The notes below the pieces were generated by a model. It had not been told where the DNA came from and ran no database searches. It worked only from the letters and a program-made list of their open reading frames with translations. A stretch of 64,000 bases of DNA from Patescibacteria group bacterium (GTDB lineage: Bacteria; Patescibacteriota; Patescibacteriia; SG8-24; DYFX01), in the NCBI GenBank assembly GCA_041659045.1, contig JBAZZB010000002.1, forward strand, positions 21,427 through 85,426. The letters run 5' to 3'. Both the position numbers and the translations under genes were made by a program. Positions within the stretch are counted from its first letter, which is position 1, and every line of letters starts with the position of its first letter. Positions 2,618-37,987 of this stretch are shown here, in pieces.

Positions 2618-4147
2618 ATGCCCGCCAACGTTGCGTTATTCGCCTTCGCCGCGCTCGCGTTCGGCCTCGGCGCCGGCTACTTCATCCAGAAGAAGCTCTC
2701 GGCCGACAAGATCGCATCCGCCAACGCCCGCGCCGAAGACACCATCAATCAAGCCAGAGCCAAAGCCCAGGAACTCGAACTCCAGGCCAAGAAGAAGTCC
2801 GTTCAGATGCTCGATGAGGCCAAGCGCGACGAAGCCGAACGCCGCCGCGAACTCACCTCGTTCCAGCAGCGCCTCGAGAAGCGCGAATCTTTGTTCGACA
2901 AACAACTCCTCGAACTCCAAGAGAAAAGCAAGAAGAGTGATGACCGCGCCAAAGAGCTCGAAGCGGCCAAGCTCGACATCGATCAGTTGAAAACTTCGAT
3001 CCGCGACCGTCTCGAGAAAGTCGCTGAACTCCCCCGCGAAGCCGCCAAGGAACAGCTCTTCAAGGCGATCGAAGAGGAAGCTCAAGACGAAATCCTCTCT
3101 CGCATCCGCAAGATTGAACGCGCCGGCACCGAAGAGTACGAAGTCAAAGCGCGCAACATTCTTTCGACCGTGATCTCGCGCGTTGCCTCTTCGCACTGCG
3201 CCGAAACGACCACGACCCAAGTCCAGCTTCCGAGCGACGACATGAAGGGTCGCATCATCGGCAAGGAAGGCCGCAACATCAAGTCGCTTGAAACTTTGAC
3301 CGGCACCGAAATCATCGTCGACGACACGCCGAACATCATCACCGTTTCCGGCTTCTCCCCCATCCGCCGCCAAGTCGCGCGCCTCGCTCTCGAGTCGCTC
3401 ATCAAGGACGGGCGCATCCAGCCGACGAAAATTGAAGAAGCGATTGAGGAAGCAAAACGCACGCTCGCGCTCGACATCAAGAAAGCCGGAGAAGACGCCA
3501 TGATCGAATGCGGCATTCCGCTCGGTTCCGTCGATCCGAAACTGATCTCGATTCTTGGTCGTTTGAAATACCGCACCTCCTACGGACAAAACGTCCTGCG
3601 CCACTCGATTGAAGTCGCCTTGATCGGCAACTACCTCGGCAAGGAACTCGGCGCCAACGCAGCCGAACTCCTGAAGGGCGGTCTCTTCCACGACATCGGC
3701 AAGGCTGTTGATCATGACGTCCCCGGTGCCCACCCTGAGATTGGCTACAACATCATGAAGAAGTTCGGCTTCCCAGAAGAAGTCGCCTATCACTCGCTCT
3801 CGCACCACGAAGACAAGCCGCGCAACGTCGAAGGCTACATCTGCAAAGCCGCTGACGCGATCTCGGGTTCTCGCCCGGGTGCCCGCAAGGACACGCTTGA
3901 GAACTACGTCCGTCGCCTCGAAGACCTCGAGAAGGTCGCAACCTCCTTCCCCGCCGTCGAGCACGCCTACGCCATTCAGGCCGGACGCGAAATGCGCGTC
4001 TTCGTCTCACCTCAGAAGATCGACGACTTGGGCGCCTGGCAGCTTGCCAAAGACATCGCCAAGAAATGCGAGCAAGAGCTCCAGTATCCTGGCGAAATCA
4101 AGATCAACGTCATCCGCGAAATGCGGGCGATTGAATACGCACGTTGA
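2618..4147 (+). CDS. rny: ribonuclease Y
   Basis: N-terminal TM (ALFAFAALAFGLGAGYFI), coiled coil, KH domain (GRIIGKEGRNIKSLETLTG) and HD domain (LFHDIGKAVDHD…HH). ATG at 2618 is in frame inside ORF 2519..4147, so an alternative upstream start at 2519 is possible. Confidence 0.9.
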   Translation: MPANVALFAFAALAFGLGAGYFIQKKLSADKIASANARAEDTINQARAKAQELELQAKKKSVQMLDEAKRDEAERRRELTSFQQRLEKRESLFDKQLLELQEKSKKSDDRAKELEAAKLDIDQLKTSIRDRLEKVAELPREAAKEQLFKAIEEEAQDEILSRIRKIERAGTEEYEVKARNILSTVISRVASSHCAETTTTQVQLPSDDMKGRIIGKEGRNIKSLETLTGTEIIVDDTPNIITVSGFSPIRRQVARLALESLIKDGRIQPTKIEEAIEEAKRTLALDIKKAGEDAMIECGIPLGSVDPKLISILGRLKYRTSYGQNVLRHSIEVALIGNYLGKELGANAAELLKGGLFHDIGKAVDHDVPGAHPEIGYNIMKKFGFPEEVAYHSLSHHEDKPRNVEGYICKAADAISGSRPGARKDTLENYVRRLEDLEKVATSFPAVEHAYAIQAGREMRVFVSPQKIDDLGAWQLAKDIAKKCEQELQYPGEIKINVIREMRAIEYAR

Positions 4148-4947
4148 TGCTCACCGTACTTATTTTCGGAGACGTCGTCGGCAAGATCGGACGCACAGCG
4201 CTTCTCAAGGCGCTTCCGGAATTGAAGGCGACGTATCATCCGGACCTCACGATCGTCAACGGCGAGAACCTGGCACACGGGAAAGGCGTCACGCATCCGA
4301 TTGTCTCGGAACTCAAAAAAGGCGGTGTCGACTTCTTCACCTCGGGCAATCACATCTTCGCCAACCCGAAAGGCGTGCATGAAATCTGGGCCGACCCCGA
4401 ACTCAAGGATCTCCTGATCCGTCCTGCCAACTTTCCGGAAGGCACGGCCGGTGAGGGAGAGAAAATTCTTGATGTTGCCGGTAAAAAAGTACTGGTGGTA
4501 AACTTGATCTGCCAGGTCTTCATGAAAGAGCCATACGGCAACGCCTTCGACGCGATGGAAGCAATTCTTGAACGGCATAAGGATAAAAAGCTCGACGCGA
4601 TTCTCGTCGACCTCCACGGGGAGGCCAGCTCGGAACGCATCGCTTTCGGCTTCCACTTCGATGGCCGCGTCTCGTCGATCACGGGAACGCACACGCACGT
4701 GCCGACAGCTGACGCCCGCATCCTCCCCAAGAAGACGGCTTATCTCACCGACATCGGCATGACCGGCGCACGACTCTCCGTTCTCGGCGTCAAACCCGAA
4801 GGTCCGATCAGTCGGTTTATCCCCGGCGAAGCGATCCCCTTCGAAATCCCTGAGACGGGCGAGGTCGACTTGAACGCCGTGCTTCTCACGATCAACGGCG
4901 ATGGCACTGCCGCGAGCATTCTACAAATTCAAAAGATCATCGAGTAA
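4144..4947 (+). CDS. ymdB: YmdB-family metallophosphoesterase (2',3'-cyclic-nucleotide phosphodiesterase)
   Basis: MMLTVLIFGDVVGKIGR…TSGNH…DLHGE…GTHTHV metallophosphoesterase motifs. Overlaps the rny stop by 4 nt, preserving the conserved rny-ymdB synteny. Confidence 0.85.
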   Translation: MMLTVLIFGDVVGKIGRTALLKALPELKATYHPDLTIVNGENLAHGKGVTHPIVSELKKGGVDFFTSGNHIFANPKGVHEIWADPELKDLLIRPANFPEGTAGEGEKILDVAGKKVLVVNLICQVFMKEPYGNAFDAMEAILERHKDKKLDAILVDLHGEASSERIAFGFHFDGRVSSITGTHTHVPTADARILPKKTAYLTDIGMTGARLSVLGVKPEGPISRFIPGEAIPFEIPETGEVDLNAVLLTINGDGTAASILQIQKIIE

Positions 4948-4953
4948 CAACAT

Positions 4954-5238
4954 ATGAACAAGGCCGAATTGGCGCTGAAGCTCACCGAGAGGATCGACTT
5001 GCCGAAAAAGCGCGCCGAAGAAATCATCGAGACGCTTGCCGACATTGTGATTCAAGAGCTGAAAAAAGGAGGAGAGGTCACGGTCGCCGGATTCGGAGCC
5101 TTCTCCGCCCGCACCCGCGCCTCACGCATGGGCGTGAATCCCCAAAAGCCGACCGAACGCATCACCATCCCAGAAGTCCGCGTGCCGAAATTCAAAGCCG
5201 GAAAGACACTGAAGGATTCGCTGAAAGGAAAAGCGTAA
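4954..5238 (+). CDS. hup: DNA-binding protein HU
   Basis: MNKAELALKL…RTRASRMGVNPQKPTERITIPEVRVPKFKAGKTLKD is a typical HU/IHF fold, 94 aa. Confidence 0.9.
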   Translation: MNKAELALKLTERIDLPKKRAEEIIETLADIVIQELKKGGEVTVAGFGAFSARTRASRMGVNPQKPTERITIPEVRVPKFKAGKTLKDSLKGKA

Positions 5239-5246
5239 AAGAAAAG

Positions 5247-5278
5247 ACCCTCCGACGAGTTCGGAGGGTTTGTCGTTT
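5247..5278. terminator. bidirectional rho-independent terminator (hup / convergent small ORF)
   Basis: Hairpin ACCCTCCGAC-GAGT-TCGGAGGGT followed by TTTGTCGTTT; the complementary strand also ends in a T-run. Confidence 0.7.
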
Positions 5279-5583
5279 CACTTGTTCTGATCTTGCTCTT
5301 GCCGAGCGCGCTGTGCCTCGACGAGCGTGCGCCAACGTTCGGTGTTGCGCTTGCGACGCGCCTGCGTCACACGCCTACGAGCCTCGCGTTCCTCGTCGGT
5401 GACGCGCGCGAGGCGATCGAGCACCTTGAGAAAACAGAACATCGTCAGACTCATCATACCGAAACAGACGGACCAGCCCTGGCTGACGTGCGTCCACATC
5501 AACTCGAAGATGATGGCGAGGGTCAGAAGAAAGAGCGCGGGACGCGCCCAACCCGTGAAAAGCCAAACGGCGAATCTCTGCAC
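5278..5583 (-). CDS. small basic membrane protein (hypothetical)
   Basis: ORF 5278..5625. A hydrophobic stretch (FAVWLFTGWARPALFLLTLAIIFELMW) precedes an R/K-rich tail. The stop sits immediately before the terminator hairpin. The start is uncertain (GTG ~5583 or ATG ~5499) and the ORF-track start overlaps the proS 3' end. Confidence 0.35.
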   Translation of the reverse strand: MQRFAVWLFTGWARPALFLLTLAIIFELMWTHVSQGWSVCFGMMSLTMFCFLKVLDRLARVTDEEREARRRVTQARRKRNTERWRTLVEAQRARQEQDQNK

Positions 5584-5609
5584 GGTAAGCCTCCTTCGAA
5601 CAGTTGGGG

Positions 5610-6878
5610 TTACGCCTTCCGCCACTCCATCACAAGAGCGGTCAAACGATCAAGAGGGACGGATTCAGCTTCCGCTTTGGAGCGCTCCTTCCACTCGACA
5701 GCGTTGGCTGCAAGCGTTTTTTCGGAAACGACAAGGCGGAGCGGGACACCGATCAAATCGGCATCGGCGAATTTTTCGCCAGCGCCCTTGTCACGATCAT
5801 CAACCAGCACTTCGACGCGCTGCGCAGAAAGTTCCCGTTCGATTGCAGAAACGGCGGCGTCGATCAGTTTTTGAGTTTCCTCGTCCTTCGACTTGAGCGC
5901 GACGACATGCACGTCGAACGGCGCGACGCTCTTGGGCCACACGATGCCTTTGGCGTCGTTGTAGGCTTCGACGATCGCGCCAACGAGACGCGAGGTGCCA
6001 ATGCCGTAGCAACCCATGAGAACGCGCTGCTGTTTACCCTCGGCGTCCATGAAATTGAAGTCGAACGCGTCGGTGTACTTGGTGCCGAGGTCGAAAATGT
6101 TGCCAACCTCGATCCCCTTCATCTTCTTCAACGTGCCGCCGCATGACGGGCAAGCATCGCCTTCTTTCAATGTGGCGATCTCGCTGTTCTGTCCGAACGA
6201 ACACTTTTCACAAGCGATGATGACGTCTTCGCCGGATTCCGTCAGTGCCTGAAACTCGTGCGAAACTTTGCTGGTAAAAATGCCGCCCGAAGCCTGCACG
6301 ACTTTGACGTCGAGGCCGCAACGCTTGAAGACTTTCACATATGCTTCGAGTGCCGTGGCATAGAACGCTTCCAAGTCTGCCTGGTTCGTATGGAAGCTGT
6401 ACATGTCCTTCATGCGGAACTCGCGACCACGGAGAACGCCCGACTTGGCGCGCAGTTCGTCACGGAACTTGGTGTTGATCTGGTAGACGGCAAACGGCAG
6501 CTCCTTGTAGGAGCGCGTGAATTTCTGTGCGAGAGGCGTCACAACTTCTTCGTGCGTGCACCCGAGTGCGTATTCCTTTTCCGTTTGTGATTTCAATTTG
6601 AAAAGCACGTCGACGCCTTCCCAGCGCTTGGTCGCCAACCAGTATTCCTTCGGCTGGAGCGACGGCATGAAAATCTCCTGAGCACCCAGGACGTTCATTT
6701 CCTCGCGCACGATCTGTTCAACCTTGCGCAGCACCGAGAGGCCGAGCGGCAGCCACGAATAGACGCCGGCCATGACGTGCTCGACGAAACCGCCCTGCTC
6801 TAGCAAGCGGGCGTTCGGGGAATCAGCGTCCGAAGGGGAATTTTTGGAGGTCTTTCCGAAGAGTTGGGAGTATCGCAT
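5610..6878 (-). CDS. proS: prolyl-tRNA synthetase, short (archaeal/eukaryotic-type) form
   Basis: MRYSQLFGKT…class II motifs (FRDELR…GREFRMKDMYSFH…GCYGIGTSR) and a C-terminal anticodon-binding domain; 422 aa. Confidence 0.9.
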   Translation of the reverse strand: MRYSQLFGKTSKNSPSDADSPNARLLEQGGFVEHVMAGVYSWLPLGLSVLRKVEQIVREEMNVLGAQEIFMPSLQPKEYWLATKRWEGVDVLFKLKSQTEKEYALGCTHEEVVTPLAQKFTRSYKELPFAVYQINTKFRDELRAKSGVLRGREFRMKDMYSFHTNQADLEAFYATALEAYVKVFKRCGLDVKVVQASGGIFTSKVSHEFQALTESGEDVIIACEKCSFGQNSEIATLKEGDACPSCGGTLKKMKGIEVGNIFDLGTKYTDAFDFNFMDAEGKQQRVLMGCYGIGTSRLVGAIVEAYNDAKGIVWPKSVAPFDVHVVALKSKDEETQKLIDAAVSAIERELSAQRVEVLVDDRDKGAGEKFADADLIGVPLRLVVSEKTLAANAVEWKERSKAEAESVPLDRLTALVMEWRKA

Positions 6879-6956
6879 ATCAGGCTCAGCTTAGCGATCG
6901 AACCGCGCGTGGTCAAGCTAAAAGAAAACGCCTCGACCGGAGTCGAGGCGCTCTCC

Positions 6957-8765
<1,809 letters not shown>

Positions 8766-9440: not shown

Positions 9441-9516
9441 TGGTGCGTCGGCTGGGGGTCGAACCCAGGACCTTAGGCTTAAGAGGCCTCTGCTCTACCG
9501 GCTGAGCTACCGACGC
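9441..9516 (-). tRNA. tRNA-Lys (anticodon CTT), CCA encoded
   Basis: The reverse complement folds as a cloverleaf: acceptor GCGTCGG/CCGACGC, D-arm GCTCAGCCGGTAGAGC, anticodon loop CTCTTAA (U33, CTT, A37), T-arm CTGGGTTCGACCCCCAG, then ACCA. Confidence 0.8.
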
Positions 9517-13141: not shown

Positions 13142-13216
13142 TGGTGCGGGCGAAGGGAATCGAACCCCTATCACTGGTTCCGAAGACCAGCGCTCTATCC
13201 GTTGAGCTACGCCCGC
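13142..13216 (-). tRNA. tRNA-Arg (anticodon TCG), CCA encoded
   Basis: Reverse complement: acceptor GCGGGCG/CGCCCGC, D-arm TAGCTCAACGGATAGAGC, anticodon stem CTGGT/ACCAG with loop CTTCGGA, T-arm GGGGTTCGATTCCC, then ACCA. A hairpin plus T-run terminator follows at ~13108..13140. Confidence 0.8.
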
Positions 13217-28790: not shown

Positions 28791-29444
28791 CTAGGCGTCG
28801 TCTCCGCTCATTCGTTCCAGTCGCTCCTGGTGGCAGAAGATGATGGCAACGAGGATGCCGCCCAAGCCGCCGCTGATGCAGACCATCTCGCGCTCGCCGT
28901 CTTCTTCCAGAAGCGGGCTCGTTTCGAGATCTGCGAGACAGGCCTCGTTCAACCCATCGCTCGCGTGACCGCGAACGCTCGCGAGTTTGTGCCGAGCGGC
29001 AGCGCGCGAGGGTAGAACCCAGACGCGGTTGCCGGTCTCGTCGAACTCGGAGAGAAGGGCTTCCGTTCCGCTTCCTTCCTCCGGTACGACGAAATTGTAG
29101 CCAGACACACAATCACAGAACGTGTCGAGATCTTCTTCTGCGATGGCGCGATCTTCTCCGACGAACTGTTCCATGATGTACGCGGCGGTCCAGCCGCGCA
29201 TCACAGAGCCTTCCAGATCGGACGTTTCCGGCAGCAGGCAGCTCTCCAAGAGATCGTGCGACGTGGTACGCATGTCCTGAGACGTGCCTTCCGCGCGCCC
29301 GACGAGCGCTCGCACCTCCGCGCGAGCGTAGCACGCGTGGAGTCGATGCTCGCCGTCTGCTGCTTCGATGTAGACGAAAGCTCCGGGCGGTGAAGGAAGG
29401 TCATCGGGTGAAAAGAACAGCCAGCTTACCCGGTCGTTCGACAT
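28791..29444 (-). CDS. hypothetical acidic protein (217 aa)
   Basis: ORF with protein-like composition; no domain recognised. Confidence 0.5.
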   Translation of the reverse strand: MSNDRVSWLFFSPDDLPSPPGAFVYIEAADGEHRLHACYARAEVRALVGRAEGTSQDMRTTSHDLLESCLLPETSDLEGSVMRGWTAAYIMEQFVGEDRAIAEEDLDTFCDCVSGYNFVVPEEGSGTEALLSEFDETGNRVWVLPSRAAARHKLASVRGHASDGLNEACLADLETSPLLEEDGEREMVCISGGLGGILVAIIFCHQERLERMSGDDA

Positions 29445-30058: not shown

Positions 30059-30111
30059 GGCTTCTTTTCTGTTATACTGAAAGCACTATGTTCGACTTAT
30101 TTGGAGGAGGT

Positions 30112-31110
30112 ATGACCAAAAAACCGTCCGGCACGTTTTATCGTCACATTCTCGCCGACGCTTGGCGCACCGTGCGCGCCAACAAAGCGCTCTGGCTCTT
30201 GGGTTTTTTCGTCTCATTCCTTGGAAACGGCGGCGTCTATGAGCTTCTGGTGCAAGGCACTGGGCGTCTCGGGCTGCGCGAAGATTTCGGACAGTTCGCC
30301 TCGCTCGGCCTTTTGCCCGGTTGGGGCAGACTCTCGTCGAGCTTGGAGAGCCTGAACGCCGGAAACATCGTCATCGTACTCCTCGTCGCACTGACGGCGA
30401 TCACCCTAACCGTCGTCGCCTTCTGGGTCGTCATCTCGGCGCAGGGTGGACTCATCGTCGGTGCCCGCGACGGCGGGCGTGAACGCAAAACAACTTTCGG
30501 TTCCCTCTTCGCCGCTGGCAACGAGATGTTCGCACCGCTCTTCGCCCTGAACATCCTTTCGCGCTTAGCGATCATGGCGTTTTTCTACCTCCTCTTGGCG
30601 CTGACGGTGCTCTATCTTGCCGACGCCAATATCTGGAGCGTACTCGCCTATCTCTCAGGATTCATCTTCCTGATTCCGATCACGCTCATCATCGGCTTCG
30701 TCACGATCTACGCCGCCTGCTACATCGCGCTGCAGCGCTTGTCGTTTGTCGCGGCGATCGAATCAGCCATCGCCCTCTTCCGTAAATACTGGCTGATCAG
30801 CATTGAAACGGCTTTCATCTTGTTCGGCGTGAATTTACTCGCCGCAGCCGGTATCGGTCTCGTGACTGGCGCCGCCGGTATCGCGCTCATCCCCTTCTTG
30901 ATCGGCGCTACGCTGCTCAAGAGCAGCATTGCGCTTTCGCTTGTCGCCGCATTGGCCGCGCTTGTCGGCGTCATCTTCCTGGCTTTTGTCGGGGCCTTCT
31001 TGGCCGCCTTCCAATACGCCGTCTGGGTTTCTCTCTTCACCAAGCTGCACGTACGAGGGCACGGCAGCACGTCCAAACTCGCTCGCTGGTTCCAGCACTT
31101 GCTGAAATAA
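30112..31110 (+). CDS. multi-pass membrane protein (DUF975/YciC-like)
   Basis: GGAGGAGG RBS directly before the ATG at 30112; 7-8 TM helices. The ORF-track start at 30088 would place the RBS inside the coding region. Confidence 0.6.
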   Translation: MTKKPSGTFYRHILADAWRTVRANKALWLLGFFVSFLGNGGVYELLVQGTGRLGLREDFGQFASLGLLPGWGRLSSSLESLNAGNIVIVLLVALTAITLTVVAFWVVISAQGGLIVGARDGGRERKTTFGSLFAAGNEMFAPLFALNILSRLAIMAFFYLLLALTVLYLADANIWSVLAYLSGFIFLIPITLIIGFVTIYAACYIALQRLSFVAAIESAIALFRKYWLISIETAFILFGVNLLAAAGIGLVTGAAGIALIPFLIGATLLKSSIALSLVAALAALVGVIFLAFVGAFLAAFQYAVWVSLFTKLHVRGHGSTSKLARWFQHLLK

Positions 31111-31146: not shown

Positions 31147-32859
31147 ATGTCTGGTGCAAACGCCTCAATTGAAGACCTGTTGAAAAAAAACAGGTTACCG
31201 AGTGTCACGACTCCCGACGCTCAATCCAAGTTCGCCGCAAAAATGCGCGAGCTCGAATTGCAGGCCAAAGAACGCGAGACGGCCAAGCGCGGCGCTGTGA
31301 TCGGCGCTTCATACATCAATTTGAAAGGTTTTCCGATTTCTCCGGAAGCCCTCGTTCTTTTGTCGCAAGAGCAATCGGAAACGTTGCAAGCAGTCGTGTT
31401 TTTGCAGACGGGCGACGAAGTACGCGTCGGCGCCATTGATCCTTCACGCAAGGATGTCCAAGAAGCGATCTATCAAGTCGGCGAGCGCGCACACGCGAAT
31501 GTTGGCACCTATATCATTTCGGAAGAGAGCTTCAGGCATGCCGTGAAGCTGTACGACGCATTGCCGAAGGCTCGCAAAATCGTAAAAGGCATCGAGATTA
31601 CCGAGACGGAGCTCAAGAAACAACAGGATCGGATGCAGACGTACAAAGACCTCGACGCTTTGATGAAAGGCGCCGATGTGACGGACGCCGTGACGATCAT
31701 CATGGCTGGCGCGCTCAAAGGAGACGCCTCCGACATCCACGTCGAAGCCGAGGAAAAAGATGTTGTCGTGCGCTATCGCATCGACGGTGTACTCCAAGAC
31801 GCGGCGCGTCTTGAACGCTCGATCTGGCCGCGCATCATCTCGCGCATCAAATTGTTTTCTAGTCTCAAAATCAACGTTGCCAACATCCCGCAAGACGGTC
31901 GCTTCACCATTTTTGTCAGCGGTAAGAAAACCGAAGTCCGCGTTTCAACAGTCCCGACATCGTACGGCGAGTCGGTCGTCATGCGTCTTCTTCGTCCGTC
32001 GACGATTGGACTTGGTTTTGATCAGCTCGGCATCCGCGGCAAAGCCTTCGAGCAGCTGAAGCGCGAAATCGATCGCCCGAACGGCATGATCATTACGACC
32101 GGTCCTACCGGTTCCGGTAAAACCACCACGCTCTACGCCGTTTTGAAAAAACTGAACACGTCGGACACCAAAATCATCACCTTGGAAGATCCGGTCGAAT
32201 ACAGTCTCGAGGGCATCAACCAGTCGCCGATTGATCTTTCCAAAGACTACACATTCGCCAAGGGGCTCCGCGCAATTCTGCGCCAAGATCCGGACGTCAT
32301 CATGGTCGGCGAAATCCGCGATCTTGAAACGGCTGAAACGGCAATTCAAGCGGCGCTCACCGGACACTTGATGGTCTCGACGATTCACACCAACAGCGCG
32401 GCGGGTGCTATCCCCCGCTTCTTGTCGATGGGCGTGAAGCCGTTCCTGCTCGCTCCCGCACTGAACGCCGTCATCGGCCAACGTCTCGTGCGCCGCGTCC
32501 ACGAAGCGTGCAAAGTCCAGGCAGAACCTGATGCTGAACAGTTGAAGAAAATACAGGAGATCCTCGGCGCGCTCTCGCCTGAGAGCGGAGAAAAACCGGA
32601 TCTTGAGAAGCTTGTGTTCTGGAAAGGTAAGGGCTGCGACGTTTGCGGAGGCTCCGGCTACAAGGGCCGCGTCGGTATCTACGAAATTTTCACCATGAGT
32701 CCGGAGATCGAAAAAGTCATTCTTTCCGGCAACGTCTCGGAGTATCAGATGCAAGAGATCGCCGTGAAGCAAGGCATGATTACGATGGCGCAAGACGGTT
32801 TGCTCAAGGCGCTTGATGGCCTGACAACGTTCGAAGAAGTCCTGGCAGCAGCGGAATGA
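31147..32859 (+). CDS. pilB: type IV pilus assembly ATPase PilB (GspE family)
   Basis: N-terminal GspE_N, Walker A GPTGSGKTTT, Asp/His boxes, and a tetracysteine motif CDVCGGSGYKGR; 570 aa. Confidence 0.9.
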   Translation: MSGANASIEDLLKKNRLPSVTTPDAQSKFAAKMRELELQAKERETAKRGAVIGASYINLKGFPISPEALVLLSQEQSETLQAVVFLQTGDEVRVGAIDPSRKDVQEAIYQVGERAHANVGTYIISEESFRHAVKLYDALPKARKIVKGIEITETELKKQQDRMQTYKDLDALMKGADVTDAVTIIMAGALKGDASDIHVEAEEKDVVVRYRIDGVLQDAARLERSIWPRIISRIKLFSSLKINVANIPQDGRFTIFVSGKKTEVRVSTVPTSYGESVVMRLLRPSTIGLGFDQLGIRGKAFEQLKREIDRPNGMIITTGPTGSGKTTTLYAVLKKLNTSDTKIITLEDPVEYSLEGINQSPIDLSKDYTFAKGLRAILRQDPDVIMVGEIRDLETAETAIQAALTGHLMVSTIHTNSAAGAIPRFLSMGVKPFLLAPALNAVIGQRLVRRVHEACKVQAEPDAEQLKKIQEILGALSPESGEKPDLEKLVFWKGKGCDVCGGSGYKGRVGIYEIFTMSPEIEKVILSGNVSEYQMQEIAVKQGMITMAQDGLLKALDGLTTFEEVLAAAE

Positions 32860-32910
32860 GTAAATGAAAAAGCCTCGCGGTAGCGCGAGGCTTTGTGTTT
32901 TGGCAGCGCT

Positions 32911-33699
32911 CTAGGCGCAAGCGAGCTGCTGGTTCGCCACGTAGGCGAGAATCTGCTCACGCGCGGCGTGCGACAGGCTTTCGGGAAGCTCCTGACCGTT
33001 CGCCAGCGATTCGGCGTACAGACGGATCTGTCCCATCCGGAGCGGTCCGGGTGGCACGTAGGCGCTCTTGTTCGGAAGCAGCTTCATCGGTGAAACCGGC
33101 GTCGGCGCGGCCACTTCCGGTGGCGCTTGGCGCGGTTGAGCAAAGAGCGTCAGGACGTTGATCGGTTCGATCTCCTTCGGAGCGACCGGCTTCTCGTCGG
33201 CCCAGACCTCCTCCCACCGCGCGCGTTCCGCATCGTGAGAAGTGTCTTTCGCGTTCGTATTCTCGTTCGCGTTTGCCAGGTCGCGAAGCGCGTTCTTGAG
33301 ATCTGTGCCGTCCGTTTCGAGCACGTGGTCCATGACCTCCTCGAGAGGGCGCACGTGTCCGGATGCCCGGAATGCGGCGTGGAACAGCTTCTCGGGATAT
33401 TCGCGCTCCACCACCTGCTCGCCTCGGAAGCACAGCGTCAGTCGCACACGCGCGTGCGCTCCGCGAGAAATCGCGAGGCTGATGTCGTGGCGCCGAGTCG
33501 GCTGAAGCTTGTCGAACAGGAACTCGCCGATCGCCGAGAGCGGCACGTCGAGGTGATCCCAGTGATTGGGCCCCCCTGCCTCCTGCAGAAGCTCACGCTC
33601 GTAGGTGCTCAAGATCAGTTGCAAGCGCGGCCTCCGCGCGACTTCCCACATCAGATGAAGATCGTTCGCGAGCTCGAGGCACAACAGCTGCACACTCAT
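32911..33699 (-). CDS. hypothetical protein (262 aa), downstream partner of the HExxH protein
   Basis: GGGAG RBS plus 6 nt before the ATG at 33697-33699. The ORF-track start at 33777 is an upstream extension. No family recognised. Confidence 0.55.
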   Translation of the reverse strand: MSVQLLCLELANDLHLMWEVARRPRLQLILSTYERELLQEAGGPNHWDHLDVPLSAIGEFLFDKLQPTRRHDISLAISRGAHARVRLTLCFRGEQVVEREYPEKLFHAAFRASGHVRPLEEVMDHVLETDGTDLKNALRDLANANENTNAKDTSHDAERARWEEVWADEKPVAPKEIEPINVLTLFAQPRQAPPEVAAPTPVSPMKLLPNKSAYVPPGPLRMGQIRLYAESLANGQELPESLSHAAREQILAYVANQQLACA

Positions 33700-33814
33700 A
33701 TGAGACTCCCTTGCAAATACCAATTTGTCTCGTAACGGGTTGATTCGGAAGCTACCAGAAAAAAGGCTATACGTCAAGGTGCAGGATAAGAAAAACCCTC
33801 GCCGCGCGGCGGGG

Positions 33815-35344
33815 TTATGGAGTTGTCAGGACATCGATACTGAGCTCTTCGAGAGCCAAGTCGACGTCGCTTGGCGTATCGTCTTGAATCCCGTGCTTCT
33901 TGAGCAGTAGGAGACCTTCGTCTTGATCGGCGCATTCTTCGAACGGCTTCGAGAAGTCGGCCGCGTTCGTGCGCGCGTGGCGGTATTCGTGGTTCACGAC
34001 CACCATGAGCCAGCGCGTCGAACGATACATCTTTTTCTTGATGTAGATTCCGAGCGAGGTGCCGTCACCGGTCTTGAGCAAGAAGCCTTCGATCATGGCA
34101 AGTTCGCCAACAAGCGACTCGAACGGGTAGATAGGTAGCGACACGTCAGGATGCTCGAGCCGCATGGCGTCGAACACCAATCGCGCGCGAGCCTTCTCTG
34201 CTTCGTCGAGTTCAACGACCTTGAAGGTCGTGCCTTCGATCATCTTCGGCGCAAAGTCGTTCGCTTCCGCCACGCCGCAGCGCTTGAGAAAGCTGCGGAG
34301 CGTCGGAGAGGTCACGATGATCGGCTTCTTGCCGAGCGAGGAACGCACGTACTCGTCGCCGAAGCCGGGATTCGACATGACAGCTTCAGCGCCGTACATC
34401 GCGTGCCAAGCCGCGCGCCACGTCTCCTCGCCAATGATCTCGTCGAGATACAGGGCATAGGAAAGCGCGTGCTCTTCGAACGGCGCTTTGCCGTCCTGGA
34501 TCGCGCCGAGAATCGGCAGAAGCACGCCCTGATCGAGCTTGGAGCTGAGCATGGTGCCCATCCACTGATAGATCTCGGACATGTTGGCGAAGACGCGCTC
34601 TTCCGTCAGCAGCCCCTCGGTATCGAAGCTGTAGTCGAAATGCGAAGCGTCGGCGCCGTCCTTCGAACAGTAGGCCAGGGTGCCGTGCGCAAAGAGCCGC
34701 GTGGCTCCCTCTTCCGACTTCGGAAAGACGCGCATGACGATTCCTTGCTGACCACTGACCACGCGATGCACCGCGGGCGTACCGGAGAGCCACTTGAAGT
34801 AGCGAGCCGGGTGCCGCATGAGCACTTCGTAGTCGGCGGTCTTGCGGATGTAGACCGCATGCTGTCCTGCCGGCATCCAATACAACTTCTCGCACTCGGT
34901 CATCTCCGGACCCTTCGGGTCGTTCCCGCGGGCATTGTTCATGTACTCGCGCCAGATCGGAAACTCGGTGAGAGGATCGTCACCGATCGCGTTACTCCAG
35001 TTCTTGTAGGTCGTGTCAACGCTAAACGGCATCGGCACGTCGGTCTCAACACCATCCTTCGGATGGATCACGATCACGTACTGATTGAACCCTTCATCGA
35101 TGCTCGAGGGACGCGCTTCGTAGCGCAGGCAGTATTGACCCGCCTGGTCAGAAGAGACCACTCGTACGTCGATACCGGCCCGCAGCGCGACCAACGGCGC
35201 GATTTTTGCGCCAGACTTGAAGATGCTGTGCGGGTTCGTGCGATCGACGTCGGAACCCTCATCGGAAAGACCGAAAACAAGTAGGCGATTTCGCGGGCAG
35301 AACCCGCTGTTCGCGATGCGAATCCAGACGGTTTCCTTGCCCAT
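33815..35344 (-). CDS. large cytoplasmic protein with C-terminal HExxH motif (putative zinc metallopeptidase)
   Basis: AAGGAG RBS plus 6 nt before the ATG at 35344. 509 aa with no signal peptide; a single HEYRH within LMVVVNHEYRHARTNAADF near the C-terminus and an acidic tail. Confidence 0.55.
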   Translation of the reverse strand: MGKETVWIRIANSGFCPRNRLLVFGLSDEGSDVDRTNPHSIFKSGAKIAPLVALRAGIDVRVVSSDQAGQYCLRYEARPSSIDEGFNQYVIVIHPKDGVETDVPMPFSVDTTYKNWSNAIGDDPLTEFPIWREYMNNARGNDPKGPEMTECEKLYWMPAGQHAVYIRKTADYEVLMRHPARYFKWLSGTPAVHRVVSGQQGIVMRVFPKSEEGATRLFAHGTLAYCSKDGADASHFDYSFDTEGLLTEERVFANMSEIYQWMGTMLSSKLDQGVLLPILGAIQDGKAPFEEHALSYALYLDEIIGEETWRAAWHAMYGAEAVMSNPGFGDEYVRSSLGKKPIIVTSPTLRSFLKRCGVAEANDFAPKMIEGTTFKVVELDEAEKARARLVFDAMRLEHPDVSLPIYPFESLVGELAMIEGFLLKTGDGTSLGIYIKKKMYRSTRWLMVVVNHEYRHARTNAADFSKPFEECADQDEGLLLLKKHGIQDDTPSDVDLALEELSIDVLTTP

Positions 35345-35412: not shown

Positions 35413-35841
35413 TCAACCAGCGACCGTAATAGCGCGTGCATCAGCACCACGGTGCGTCATGCGTACCGTAATCATCTTTTTGGGAAGCATCGTTTGAATG
35501 CGATCGGCCCACTCAACAAGTACAACCGTGTCTGGGCGACCGAGGTATTCCGTGAGACCAACAGCGCTCAGTTGCGCGACATCACCGCGATAGGCATCGA
35601 CGTGTAAAAAAGCTTTAAGTGCTCCGCGTTTCGTGAGCGGATATTCTTGCATCAAAATGAAGGTCGGGCTCTGCACCCGCTTCTTGATACCGAGTGCCTT
35701 GGCAAGCGCTTGCGCAAACGTCGTTTTGCCAGCGCCAAGGTTTCCATAGAGGGCGATCACCTCTCCCCCGCGCAGCCGGGTGGCAAGTTGCTTGGCGACC
35801 TCAGCCGTTTCTTTCGGCGACGTTGTGACAAACTTTTTCAT
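35413..35841 (-). CDS. tsaE: tRNA t6A biosynthesis ATPase TsaE
   Basis: P-loop GNLGAGKTTF and the YjeE fold; 142 aa. Confidence 0.85.
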   Translation of the reverse strand: MKKFVTTSPKETAEVAKQLATRLRGGEVIALYGNLGAGKTTFAQALAKALGIKKRVQSPTFILMQEYPLTKRGALKAFLHVDAYRGDVAQLSAVGLTEYLGRPDTVVLVEWADRIQTMLPKKMITVRMTHRGADARAITVAG

Positions 35842-35842
35842 A

Positions 35843-36865
35843 TCACTTCAAACCGAGTTCCCACACAGGGTCGGCCAACATGCCTTTCCAGGGGTCCGAC
35901 TTCTTTTTCGACAAGCGGAAATACCCGGCCATGGCAATCATCGCCGAATTATCGGTGCAGTACTCAAGGCCGGGAATGACAGCTTCTGTCTTCGGCAATT
36001 CTTTTTTAACCGCAGCTGCGAGGTGTTCGCGAAGCATCGTGTTGGCCGCGACTCCGCCCGCCAAAAAAACGGTTTTTGCTTTCTTCGCCTTGGCGGCTCG
36101 AATTGTTTTCACGACGAGCGTTTCAACGACAGCGGCTTGAAAGGACGCGCAAACGTCGTTCACATCCTGCGCAGACCACTCCTTCTTGCGTTGAAGCGTG
36201 TAGAGAACGGCGGTTTTGAGCCCCGAGAAACTAAAATCAAAATTCGCTTGGTTGAGAAGCGGGCGCGGAAACGCGAACTTCGTGGGGTCGCCGAGTTCGG
36301 CGCGTTTCGAAACGGCCGGGCCTCCTGGATAACCGAGCTCAAGCATCTTCGCGACCTTATCGAACGCCTCCCCCGCTGCGTCGTCGAGCGTCGAACCGAT
36401 GCGTTCGTATTTGCCGAATCCCTTCATCACGACGAGCTCCGTGTGACCGCCCGAAACAACCAGCACCAGTGCCGGGAACGCATACGCGGAGGTGATCTTT
36501 TTATTGATCCAGTTGGCGGCGATGTGTCCCTCGATATGATTCACTCCTACAATCGGTAATTCCCAACCATACGCCAACGCGCGTGCGAAGTCGGTACCGA
36601 CGCGCAGCGAGGTAATGAGTCCGGGTCCGCGCGTGACAGCAATGCCGTCCAAATTTTTCCGTGTCACGCCGAGTTCATCGATTAAAAGAGGTAGGGTTTC
36701 AACATGCAGACGAGCGGCAACTTCTGGCACGACACCTCCGTACTCGGCGTGCTTCAGGATTTGCGTGGCCGTCAGGTGCTTTTCAATCCGAGCAATGCCC
36801 TTGCTCACATTGAGCAGGGCAACCGAGGTTTCGTCGCAGGATGTTTCGATACCGAGGATGCGCAT
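35843..36865 (-). CDS. tsaD: tRNA N6-adenosine threonylcarbamoyltransferase TsaD
   Basis: MRILGIETSCDETSVALL… Kae1/TsaD family with HxxxH metal site; the stop is 1 nt before the tsaE start. Confidence 0.95.
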   Translation of the reverse strand: MRILGIETSCDETSVALLNVSKGIARIEKHLTATQILKHAEYGGVVPEVAARLHVETLPLLIDELGVTRKNLDGIAVTRGPGLITSLRVGTDFARALAYGWELPIVGVNHIEGHIAANWINKKITSAYAFPALVLVVSGGHTELVVMKGFGKYERIGSTLDDAAGEAFDKVAKMLELGYPGGPAVSKRAELGDPTKFAFPRPLLNQANFDFSFSGLKTAVLYTLQRKKEWSAQDVNDVCASFQAAVVETLVVKTIRAAKAKKAKTVFLAGGVAANTMLREHLAAAVKKELPKTEAVIPGLEYCTDNSAMIAMAGYFRLSKKKSDPWKGMLADPVWELGLK

Positions 36866-37912: not shown

Positions 37913-37987
37913 GGCCTCATCGTCTAACGGTTAGGACGGCTCCCTTTCACGGAGCAAATAGGGGTTCGATTCCCCTTGGGGCTACCA
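37913..37987 (+). tRNA. tRNA-Glu (anticodon TTC), CCA encoded
   Basis: Acceptor GGCCTCA/TGGGGCT (two G-U pairs), D-arm GTCTAACGGTTAGGAC, anticodon stem GCTCC/GGAGC with loop CTTTCAC, T-arm AGGGGTTCGATTCCCCT, then ACCA. The layout matches canonical tRNA-Glu. Confidence 0.8.

Follow-up and report, generated by a model that had tools for sequence, protein, structure and literature searches.

A phage-type protein with a Hsp90/GHKL-like module and a predicted zincin domain at the tsaDE-pilB junction of a Patescibacteria sublineage

Hsp90 and its relatives HtpG and TRAP1 have an N-terminal module of the GHKL class, followed by a middle domain and a C-terminal dimerisation domain. In canonical GHKL proteins the motifs come in the order N-box, G1, G2; the N-box provides a catalytic Glu and a Mg-binding Asn, and the Asp of the G1 box contacts the N6 of adenine. 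The proteases Wss1 (WLM) and Spartan/SprT are built on a minimal zincin core, in which the third zinc ligand is His (HExxHxxxxxH in Wss1). We have studied a gene, here called X, in a stretch of 64,000 nucleotides (the window) from the metagenome-assembled genome of a Patescibacteria group bacterium (GenBank assembly GCA_041659045.1, contig JBAZZB010000002.1). X lies between tsaD-tsaE and pilB, and is followed by a smaller open reading frame (ORF), here called the partner. The 509-aa product of X resembles Hsp90 in its N-terminal half, and its C-terminal domain has its best, though weak, matches in Wss1 and Spartan.

Other described systems invite comparison. Zincin metallopeptidase (MPTase) domains with a core of a helix, three strands, the HExxH helix and a second helix bearing the third ligand occur in the polyvalent and ArdC proteins of phages and mobile elements (PMC5512222); no fusion to GHKL or Hsp90 is listed in that paper, in which the terms GHKL, HSP90 and HATPase have 0 occurrences. 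Phage T4 rIIA-type proteins have an N-terminal GHKL ATPase and a variable C-terminal domain (PMC7824862). FtsH and Lon unite a nucleotide-binding module and a protease in one polypeptide, FtsH being a HExxH zinc enzyme like the one predicted here.

The reading that we favour, and regard as reasonably probable, is that X is a single-gene, phage-derived GHKL-like/zincin protein that has settled at the tsaDE-pilB junction and is possibly a nucleotide-gated protease. What appears to be new is the combination, the swap in motif order and the family; the component folds were already known. In the literature searched we found no description of the X architecture, of its homolog gp29 of Pseudomonas phage YuA or of a permuted GHKL module. 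The coordinates of all features are collected in Table 1.

Architecture of the X protein

A word-indexed homolog search with X returned 11 proteins, and an exhaustive profile search returned 715 or more cluster representatives (clustered at 50% identity), 97 of them below 1e-30. Nearly all members of the family are full-length proteins of 450-590 aa. The conservation counts given below are taken from an alignment of 127 diverse members reaching down to ~18% identity, in which the only invariant positions are G25, H452, E453 and H456. Both X and the partner had been described in a preliminary account as uncharacterised, and neither has a match in Pfam, NCBIfam or PADLOC. Scans of the same three collections that included ten distant homologs of X gave nothing above threshold; in PADLOC, X, the partner and the family members P0010, P0035 and P0110 matched 0 families, and P0150 gave only a 13.8-bit match to TmtA.

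The structure of X was modelled by AlphaFold2 (AF2) with the family alignment, giving pLDDT = 93.4 and pTM = 0.84. When the model was compared with the PDB using Foldseek, full-length TRAP1 and Hsp90 came first (E 2.8e-5 to 4.8e-4, prob 0.96-0.99), and the ATPase domain of MutL was also found, at rank 7. The protein would comprise three parts, i.e., a Hsp90/MutL-type GHKL-like module with its motifs in swapped order, a helical linker domain and a minimal zincin. For the helical middle domain, delimited by DSSP of the AF2 model, no specific match was found. The preliminary description had seen about 440 residues with no recognisable domain ahead of a HEYRH motif; fold and profile comparisons now give this region a Hsp90/GHKL-like N-terminal half.

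The N-terminal module is made of a beta-sheet domain and a second alpha/beta domain that follows it in the manner of the Hsp90 middle domain. From the position of the motif we infer that its first strand is equivalent to the HtpG strand LTISDNGVGM. In the family this strand reads IxIxNxG, with N12 in 124/127 members and Asp in 1/127, and the second Gly is not conserved; the DxGxG pattern of a G1 box is not present in the X family. The G2 pattern GxxGxG with its following helix is found, in the family form GQFGSGxKxA (G40 in 125/127, G45 in 125/127; S44, G45 and K47 each above 90%). The N-box pattern ExxxNxxD is likewise found, as RExxxNAxD, on a helix that covers residues 128-141 in the model (E133 in 126/127, N137 in 125/127). 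The G1-like strand, the G2 segment and the N-box follow one another in that order in X, which is the reverse of HtpG, and the canonical order of N-box, G1 and G2 is not observed. An N-terminal extension of X is not possible, because the tsaE stop codon lies only 68 nt upstream.

Profile comparisons connect these segments with Hsp90. In HMMER alignments the N-box of the family, LRExxxNAxD (profile 125-149), aligns with LRELISNASDA of HtpG (52-76), and the segment LExLG..TIGQFGSGxKxAPIAA (profile 18-62) aligns with HtpG 123-165; written out further, the consensus of this segment is LExLGxSTKR..TIGQFGSGxKxAPIAAL. HHalign of the X family against residues 104-146 of E. coli HtpG, the lid/G2 segment, gave a prob of 93%. 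For a permutation test, 21 N-domains were rearranged in silico with the N-box placed first. The profile of the permuted domains is collinear with Hsp82 residues 30-139 with E = 0.004, compared with 0.041 against the same chain for the profile in native order, and essentially the only matches of either profile are Hsp90s (Hsp90/HtpG N-terminal domains). The N-terminal halves of five members gave no match to Pfam HATPase_c, HATPase_c_3 or HSP90 at E<=10; the best Pfam match of the isolated halves was SACS, with E = 0.13. X is therefore like Hsp90, HtpG and TRAP1 in its best whole-model fold match and in the N-box and G2-type segments that align, and unlike them in its swapped motif order, a lid shorter by ~17 residues, Asn in place of the G1 Asp, and a zincin protease in place of the C-terminal dimerisation domain.

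In the clade to which the window belongs, four positions in the GHKL-type motifs, each with 81-98% conservation across the family, have been substituted (G40S, D140G, K29E and E22L). Members of the family may plausibly bind nucleotide; whether the window protein does so is uncertain, given that Asn takes the place of the G1 Asp and that G40, D140, K29 and E22 are lost from its clade. Nucleotide dependence may be altered or weakened in this clade, with the residues of the protease site left intact. A more radical possibility is that the X of the window clade is a degenerate relic, with an eroded ATPase-like site and a protease-only or structural role. The four substitutions at near-invariant positions, the long branch of the clade and a raised dN (nonsynonymous divergence) are in keeping with this. 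However, the ratio of nonsynonymous to synonymous divergence (dN/dS) of 0.12-0.28 is clearly purifying, the ORF is full-length in every genome examined, and HExxH, D463, D473, E133, N137, S44, G45 and K47 are all retained, and we consider such decay to be improbable.

The C-terminal domain follows the definition of the zincin core given in PMC5512222, with a helix (residues 381-397), three strands (405-410, 420-424 and 430-436), the HExxH helix (443-459) and a second helix (466-483) in the AF2 model. The HEYRH motif that had been reported near the C terminus is confirmed at residues 452-456. It is strongly constrained, for HExxH is found in 127/127 homologs with no loss of either His or of the Glu. 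A search for the third ligand, suggested at the same time, has yielded two conserved acidic candidates without singling out the one that binds metal: D463 is D/E in 124/127 members, and D473, on the second helix, in 123/127. The position +6 past the second His of HExxH is variable in the family.

The best profile matches of this domain in the PDB were Wss1p (1.2e-3 and 0.017), Spartan (0.023) and S. pombe WLM (0.025-0.05), and Wss1, Spartan and WLM head the matches of three variants of the profile. The thresholds of Pfam were not reached, with 13.4 bits for SprT-like (cut-off 25.6) and 12.8 bits for WLM (cut-off 26). When the zincin domain was compared with E. coli SprT (YggI) by HHalign, the prob was 2.9%, and membership of the SprT family was rejected on this ground. 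We call the C terminus of X a minimal zincin, predicted from profiles and model to lie nearest to WLM/SprT without being a member. It is like Wss1 and Spartan/SprT in its minimal core and in the pattern G...I.I(s)....(l)v.TL.HE..H. It differs in the third ligand, which is apparently Asp (D463 and/or D473) and not His, and in being without the SHP, VIM, UBZ or Zn-ribbon DNA-binding appendages.

The family in phages and mobile elements

A scan of PHROG connected four family members with phrog_8203/phrog_6077 (P0150, 1.7e-26; P0130, 5.5e-18; P0110, 1.2e-15; P0035, 3.9e-08). Distant members match phrog_8203 over their own full length, and the functions of both phrog_8203 and phrog_6077 are unassigned in PHROG. 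The tie of X itself to these PHROG families is transitive, because it is made via the family profile only. Structural comparison with BFVD gave a full-length homolog of X in an uncultured Caudovirales phage (E 5e-28, TM 0.6), with further homologs in Erwinia phage pEp_SNUABM_01 and Sphingobium phage Lacusarx. By tblastn the X family was found in 68 phage records, mostly of Pseudomonas Yuavirus and Bordetella phages. Among these is gp29 of Pseudomonas phage YuA (L024:6998-8176, 392 aa), whose gene lies between those of the primase and the exonuclease; it reads EEFIH where the family has HExxH, and keeps the G1, G2 and N-box motifs. Orthologs in the YuA/M6 group have been deposited as hypothetical protein, as 'hydrolase, metallopeptidase' or as 'ATP-binding protein'.

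One subgroup of the family occurs in at least 85 IMG/VR contigs, with WhiB-like, ParB-like and very acidic small proteins as neighbours, and another member adjoins a small terminase and an ArdC-N/M78 gene. No homolog of the partner was found with the phage members of the family, either in the PHROG scan or among the IMG/VR neighbour clusters, which differ. These contexts are best explained if the main carriers of the X family are phages and mobile elements, where its genes belong to early or replication blocks.

We also note a family member, P0025 (contig L022:1112-7752; 583 aa, 27-28% identical to X), that lies beside purP-like DUF1246/DUF1297 and NTPase_1 genes. These neighbours look archaeal and include neither tsaE nor pilB, which is a hint that the family reaches beyond Patescibacteria and phages.

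The phage contexts bear on the possibility that X is a protease of DNA-protein crosslinks or of DNA-bound proteins, like Wss1, Spartan and SprT, with the GHKL module as a clamp of the MutL/MORC type. In sequence the protease domain does come closest to Wss1p, Spartan and S. pombe WLM, the phage homologs lie in replication modules or near ParB-like genes, and the MutL ATPase is among the fold matches. Yet those E-values are marginal, E. coli SprT went undetected by HHalign, no DNA-binding domain was identified, and the closest fold is that of Hsp90, which acts on protein clients, rather than MutL, GyrB or MORC. A Wss1-like role of this kind is consequently unlikely, in our estimation.

The family shares with the polyvalent-protein and ArdC MPTase domains its habitat in phages and mobile elements, an early-gene context, the C-terminal position of the HExxH domain and the topology of the core, and at one locus it adjoins an ArdC-N/M78 gene. 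What sets the X family apart is a compact build of three domains (450-590 aa), which include the GHKL-like module. T4 rIIA resembles X in being phage-encoded, with an N-terminal GHKL-class module, a different C-terminal domain and a suspected role in conflict; X is distinguished by its protease C terminus and swapped motif order. A relationship with T4 rIIA was considered and dropped, there being no PHROG or sequence link. With FtsH and Lon the likeness is one of concept, for X has a GHKL-like and not an AAA+ module, no transmembrane anchor and no homology to either. FtsH is encoded a few genes away from X in relatives.

The tsaE-pilB junction and the downstream gene

Domain matches confirm the position between pilB and tsaE-tsaD that had been reported for the two genes (pilB T2SSE, 2.8e-121; tsaE, 4.8e-36; tsaD, 5.8e-91). 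The order tsaD, tsaE, X and convergent pilB is found in every close relative. With TsaD as bait we surveyed synteny in 80 metagenomic loci. X was present in 5/5 informative loci with TsaD of at least 80% identity and in some loci at 54-56% (L114, L115 and L120); it was in none of the TsaD-bait loci below 52% TsaD identity. Its place after tsaE is retained at 25-27% identity of X in L011, where a SLT_2 gene has been inserted, and at 22-24% in L023.

The junction can also exist without X. L146/L148, L149, L174, L111 and L119 lack it and keep tsaD-tsaE with convergent pilB, and in L146 and L148 the junction is empty, tsaE and pilB being 95 nt apart (L146:2063-2158). Other cargo comprises a RsmE-type methyltransferase in L149 (4177-4908) and L174, an ORF of 1381 aa in L111 (9841-13983) and an IS256-family transposase in L021. 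In L120 (TsaD 54%; 3259-8482), genes for SLT_2, a 526-aa unknown protein, a ThiF/E1-like protein and a SAMP2-like protein lie between tsaE and X. The tsaE/pilB junction thus varies in its content, with X as the commonest occupant in one sublineage. X is not a universal housekeeping gene. The comparison of neighbourhoods that had been proposed thus gave a divided answer: the adjacency of X and tsaE is persistent, whereas the pair of X and partner is not universal, and X itself is missing from L146/L148.

The four inserted genes of L120 are co-directional with X. The lytic transglycosylase among them is the SLT_2 protein, the SAMP2/ubiquitin-like protein has 90 aa, and the ThiF/E1-like protein matches the E1-E2 models of PADLOC at 1e-12; this insert may be a ubiquitin-like conjugation cassette adjoining a HExxH protein.

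Could X nevertheless serve the t6A genes tsaD-tsaE as a lineage-specific chaperone, protease or substitute subunit? X lies directly 3' of tsaE in the same direction, the gap of 63-80 nt has no hairpin in the close clade (68 nt in the window), the adjacency lasts down to 22-27% identity, and X is under purifying selection. The relatives that lack X despite the same arrangement speak against such a coupling, as do the loci L011 and L120, in which X is separated from tsaE by other genes. Furthermore, most of the family is in phages with no tsaDE nearby, and X diverges far faster than TsaD and TsaE. It has no ASKHA/TsaB-like fold, and this, together with its absence from relatives keeping tsaD-tsaE, led us to reject X as a substitute for TsaB. 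Overall we give little credence to a t6A-coupled housekeeping factor. A housekeeping protease had been offered as the alternative to a defence role; the conserved position after tsaE is what can be kept of that idea, against the relatives without X and the mainly phage membership of the family.

X evolves about 5 times as fast as its neighbours. Between the window and L001 the identities are 91% for TsaD, 90.5% for PilB, 75% for TsaE and 67% for X, and between the window and L003 they are 82%, 78%, 58% and 34%, respectively. The dN of X is 4-6 times that of its neighbours. For identical genome pairs, dN/dS was 0.12-0.28 for X, 0.35-0.52 for the partner and 0.016-0.07 for TsaD and PilB, and the values below 1 for each indicate that X and the partner are genuine coding genes. 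The tree of the X clade is star-like at 30-40% identity, with the window clade on a long branch. The discrepancy in rate is compatible with repeated replacement in situ as well as with fast vertical evolution. A conflict-related origin for X is plausible because of this fast evolution and because the wider family is mainly in phages, and it would apply to X alone and not to X with its partner.

X and the partner are two real, co-directional ORFs, 115 nt apart, each with a ribosome-binding site (RBS), as had been stated: AAGGAG lies 7 nt before the ATG of X and AGGGAG ahead of that of the partner. The mechanical ORF list gave the partner as a 288-aa version beginning with TTG; the NCBI annotation and the homologs favour 262 aa. 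The two genes had further been described as an operon, a description that is contradicted by a terminator hairpin after X and a conserved promoter-like box ahead of the partner. The hairpin has 9 bp (7 G-C and 2 A-U) with one bulged A, a free energy of -14.2 kcal/mol and z = -2.2, and is followed by UUUUUCUU. A simple terminator scanner did not flag it, owing to the bulged A. L003, L006 and L008 each have a counterpart with a T-run 3' of X, and L001 has a weaker one that was read by hand; the hairpin is seen both with and without a partner downstream. The promoter-like box was read from the sequence and was not flagged by a consensus scan; the boxes TTGACR-14nt-TGGTA(G/C)C are kept in 3/3 aligned partner-bearing loci (the window, L001 and L108). 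Given the hairpin after X and these conserved boxes, the partner looks like its own transcription unit, separate from X. X itself is probably transcribed by read-through from tsaD-tsaE, to judge from the gap between tsaE and X, which has no hairpin.

The only homologs of the partner are P0013 in L021 (71%), a 243-aa protein in L001/L002 (37-40%) and one in L108, so that it is found in 4 of the ~15 X-bearing lineages examined (window, L021, L001/L002 and L108). It is not downstream of X in L003-5, L006/7, L008, L010, L011, L018, L023, L110, L112-L115 or L120. In L021, the closest relative, the IS256-type transposase stands between X and the partner. The partner has no PHROG match, its profile has no PDB match at E<=10, and its AF2 model, with pLDDT 48, is unusable. 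The best explanation is that the partner is an unrelated, fast-evolving orphan, inserted downstream of X with its own promoter.

These data bear directly on the preliminary proposal of a two-gene toxin-antitoxin (TA) or anti-phage module made up of X and the 262-aa protein. The two genes are adjacent, point the same way and have good RBSs, both are unannotated and fast-evolving, and the variable junction also houses a transposase and other cargo. But separate transcription units, the patchy occurrence of the partner and the transposase between the genes in L021 leave the two-gene module unsupported. Most genomes with X have no partner, no homolog of the partner accompanies the family members in phages, and neither protein is matched by a PADLOC model, all of which speaks against the idea of a defence module. 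Of the rival explanations this is the least tenable, and we judge it very improbable.

Rfam and tRNA scans gave no feature at X or the partner. Elsewhere in the 64-kb window there are tRNA genes for Lys-CTT (9441-9516, -), Arg-TCG (13142-13216, -) and Glu-TTC (37913-37987, +), and beyond these three no Rfam family reached its gathering score. The G+C content is 0.67 in the first 2 kb and 0.52-0.63 in the rest of the window. A 217-aa protein (28791-29444, -) without a Pfam match is syntenic in L006/L007. A 340-aa multi-pass membrane protein (30088-31110, +), also without a Pfam match, adjoins pilB and has a counterpart of 332-340 aa beside pilB in L001, L003, L006, L008 and L011.

Table 1. Features of X, the partner and the surrounding junction. 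Positions are those of the window except where a locus is named; (.) denotes no single strand.
Feature	Position	Strand	Description
tsaD-tsaE	35413..36865	(-)	Upstream of X, co-directional; 68-nt gap, no hairpin; probable source of X transcription
Gene X	33815..35344	(-)	509 aa; ORF list and homologs
Hsp90/GHKL-like module	34595..35344	(-)	Residues 1-250; beta-sheet domain and second alpha/beta domain
G1-box-like first beta-strand WIRIANSG	35303..35326	(-)	Residues 7-14
G2-box-like loop and helix SIFKSGAKIA	35198..35227	(-)	Residues 40-49; family consensus GQFGSGxKxA
N-box-like helix REYMNNARG	34925..34951	(-)	Residues 132-140; family RExxxNAxD; after the G boxes
Window-clade substitutions	35225-35227, 34925-34927, 35258-35260, 35279-35281	(-)	X residues 40, 140, 29, 22
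All-helical middle domain	34280..34582	(-)	Residues 255-355; DSSP of AF2 model; no specific match found
Minimal zincin metalloprotease domain (predicted)	33887..34231	(-)	Residues 372-486
HEYRH, predicted zinc site and catalytic base	33977..33991	(-)	H452, E453, H456; residues 452-456
Candidate third zinc ligand(s)	33926..33958	(-)	D463 to D473; putative ligand role
Intrinsic-terminator-like hairpin and U-run	33788..33816	(-)	Begins at X stop codon
Promoter-like element of partner	33749..33777	(-)	TTGACG, 17-nt spacer, TAGCTT, TG extended -10
Partner gene	32911..33699	(-)	262 aa from ATG at 33699
Bidirectional terminator	32869..32894	(.)	Common to partner and pilB; 11-bp stem, -18.5 kcal/mol, z -5.8
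pilB (type IV pilus ATPase)	31147..32859	(+)	Convergent; other boundary of variable junction
IS256-family transposase	L021:1255-2103		At tsaE/pilB junction

A possible nucleotide-gated protease and its significance

How might a phage-derived GHKL-like/zincin protein act? By analogy with GHKL machines, the GHKL-like module would be where a nucleotide and/or a client binds, and would gate or position the C-terminal zinc protease, which in turn would cleave specific protein targets. For phages, the gene contexts suggest that these targets would be proteins of the host or proteins bound to DNA, attacked early in infection. A copy of the family would have become fixed between tsaD-tsaE and pilB in one Patescibacteria (Minisyncoccota/Parcubacteria) sublineage, and this bacterial-lineage copy may be a domesticated or exclusion-type version.

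Several observations weigh against the favoured reading. The X of the window, like P0010, matches no PHROG at E<=0.01, and tblastn of this X against 50,697 phage records gave no match. In sequence, every tie to Hsp90 or Wss1/SprT is weak (E 1e-3 to 0.05), and for E. coli SprT the prob of the HHalign comparison is only 2.9%. N12 stands in place of the G1 Asp, and the losses of G40, D140, K29 and E22 in the window clade add to the difficulty. Lastly, the lasting adjacency to tsaE with no terminator between could mean a functional link.

A bolder version is that a circularly permuted Hsp90/GHKL module feeds clients to the fused zincin, making X a nucleotide-gated protease outside the AAA+ class, used as an early weapon of phages against host proteins, possibly DNA-bound or defence proteins, and captured by a lineage of Patescibacteria as a fast-evolving resident gene. 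The captured gene might then serve, for example, in the exclusion of related phages or the turnover of specific proteins. We put this forward tentatively, as doubtful but conceivable.

The practical outcome is a correction of the preliminary description: we find no TA or defence pair, and the 440 residues taken to be domain-less contain what we read as a Hsp90-like module. Beyond this, a family of at least 715 clusters lies outside the models of Pfam, NCBIfam and PADLOC, and it includes proteins of tractable cultured phages (the Pseudomonas YuA/M6 group and Bordetella phages). The swap in motif order, if real, would count as a rarely seen permutation of the Bergerat fold. In the Patescibacteria copies, nature offers a case in which a phage-type gene keeps to a single chromosomal junction and diverges 4-6 times faster than its neighbours. 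If it is true that the GHKL-like module controls the protease, the family would represent a non-AAA+ route to ATP-dependent proteolysis and a new early-gene activity of phages.

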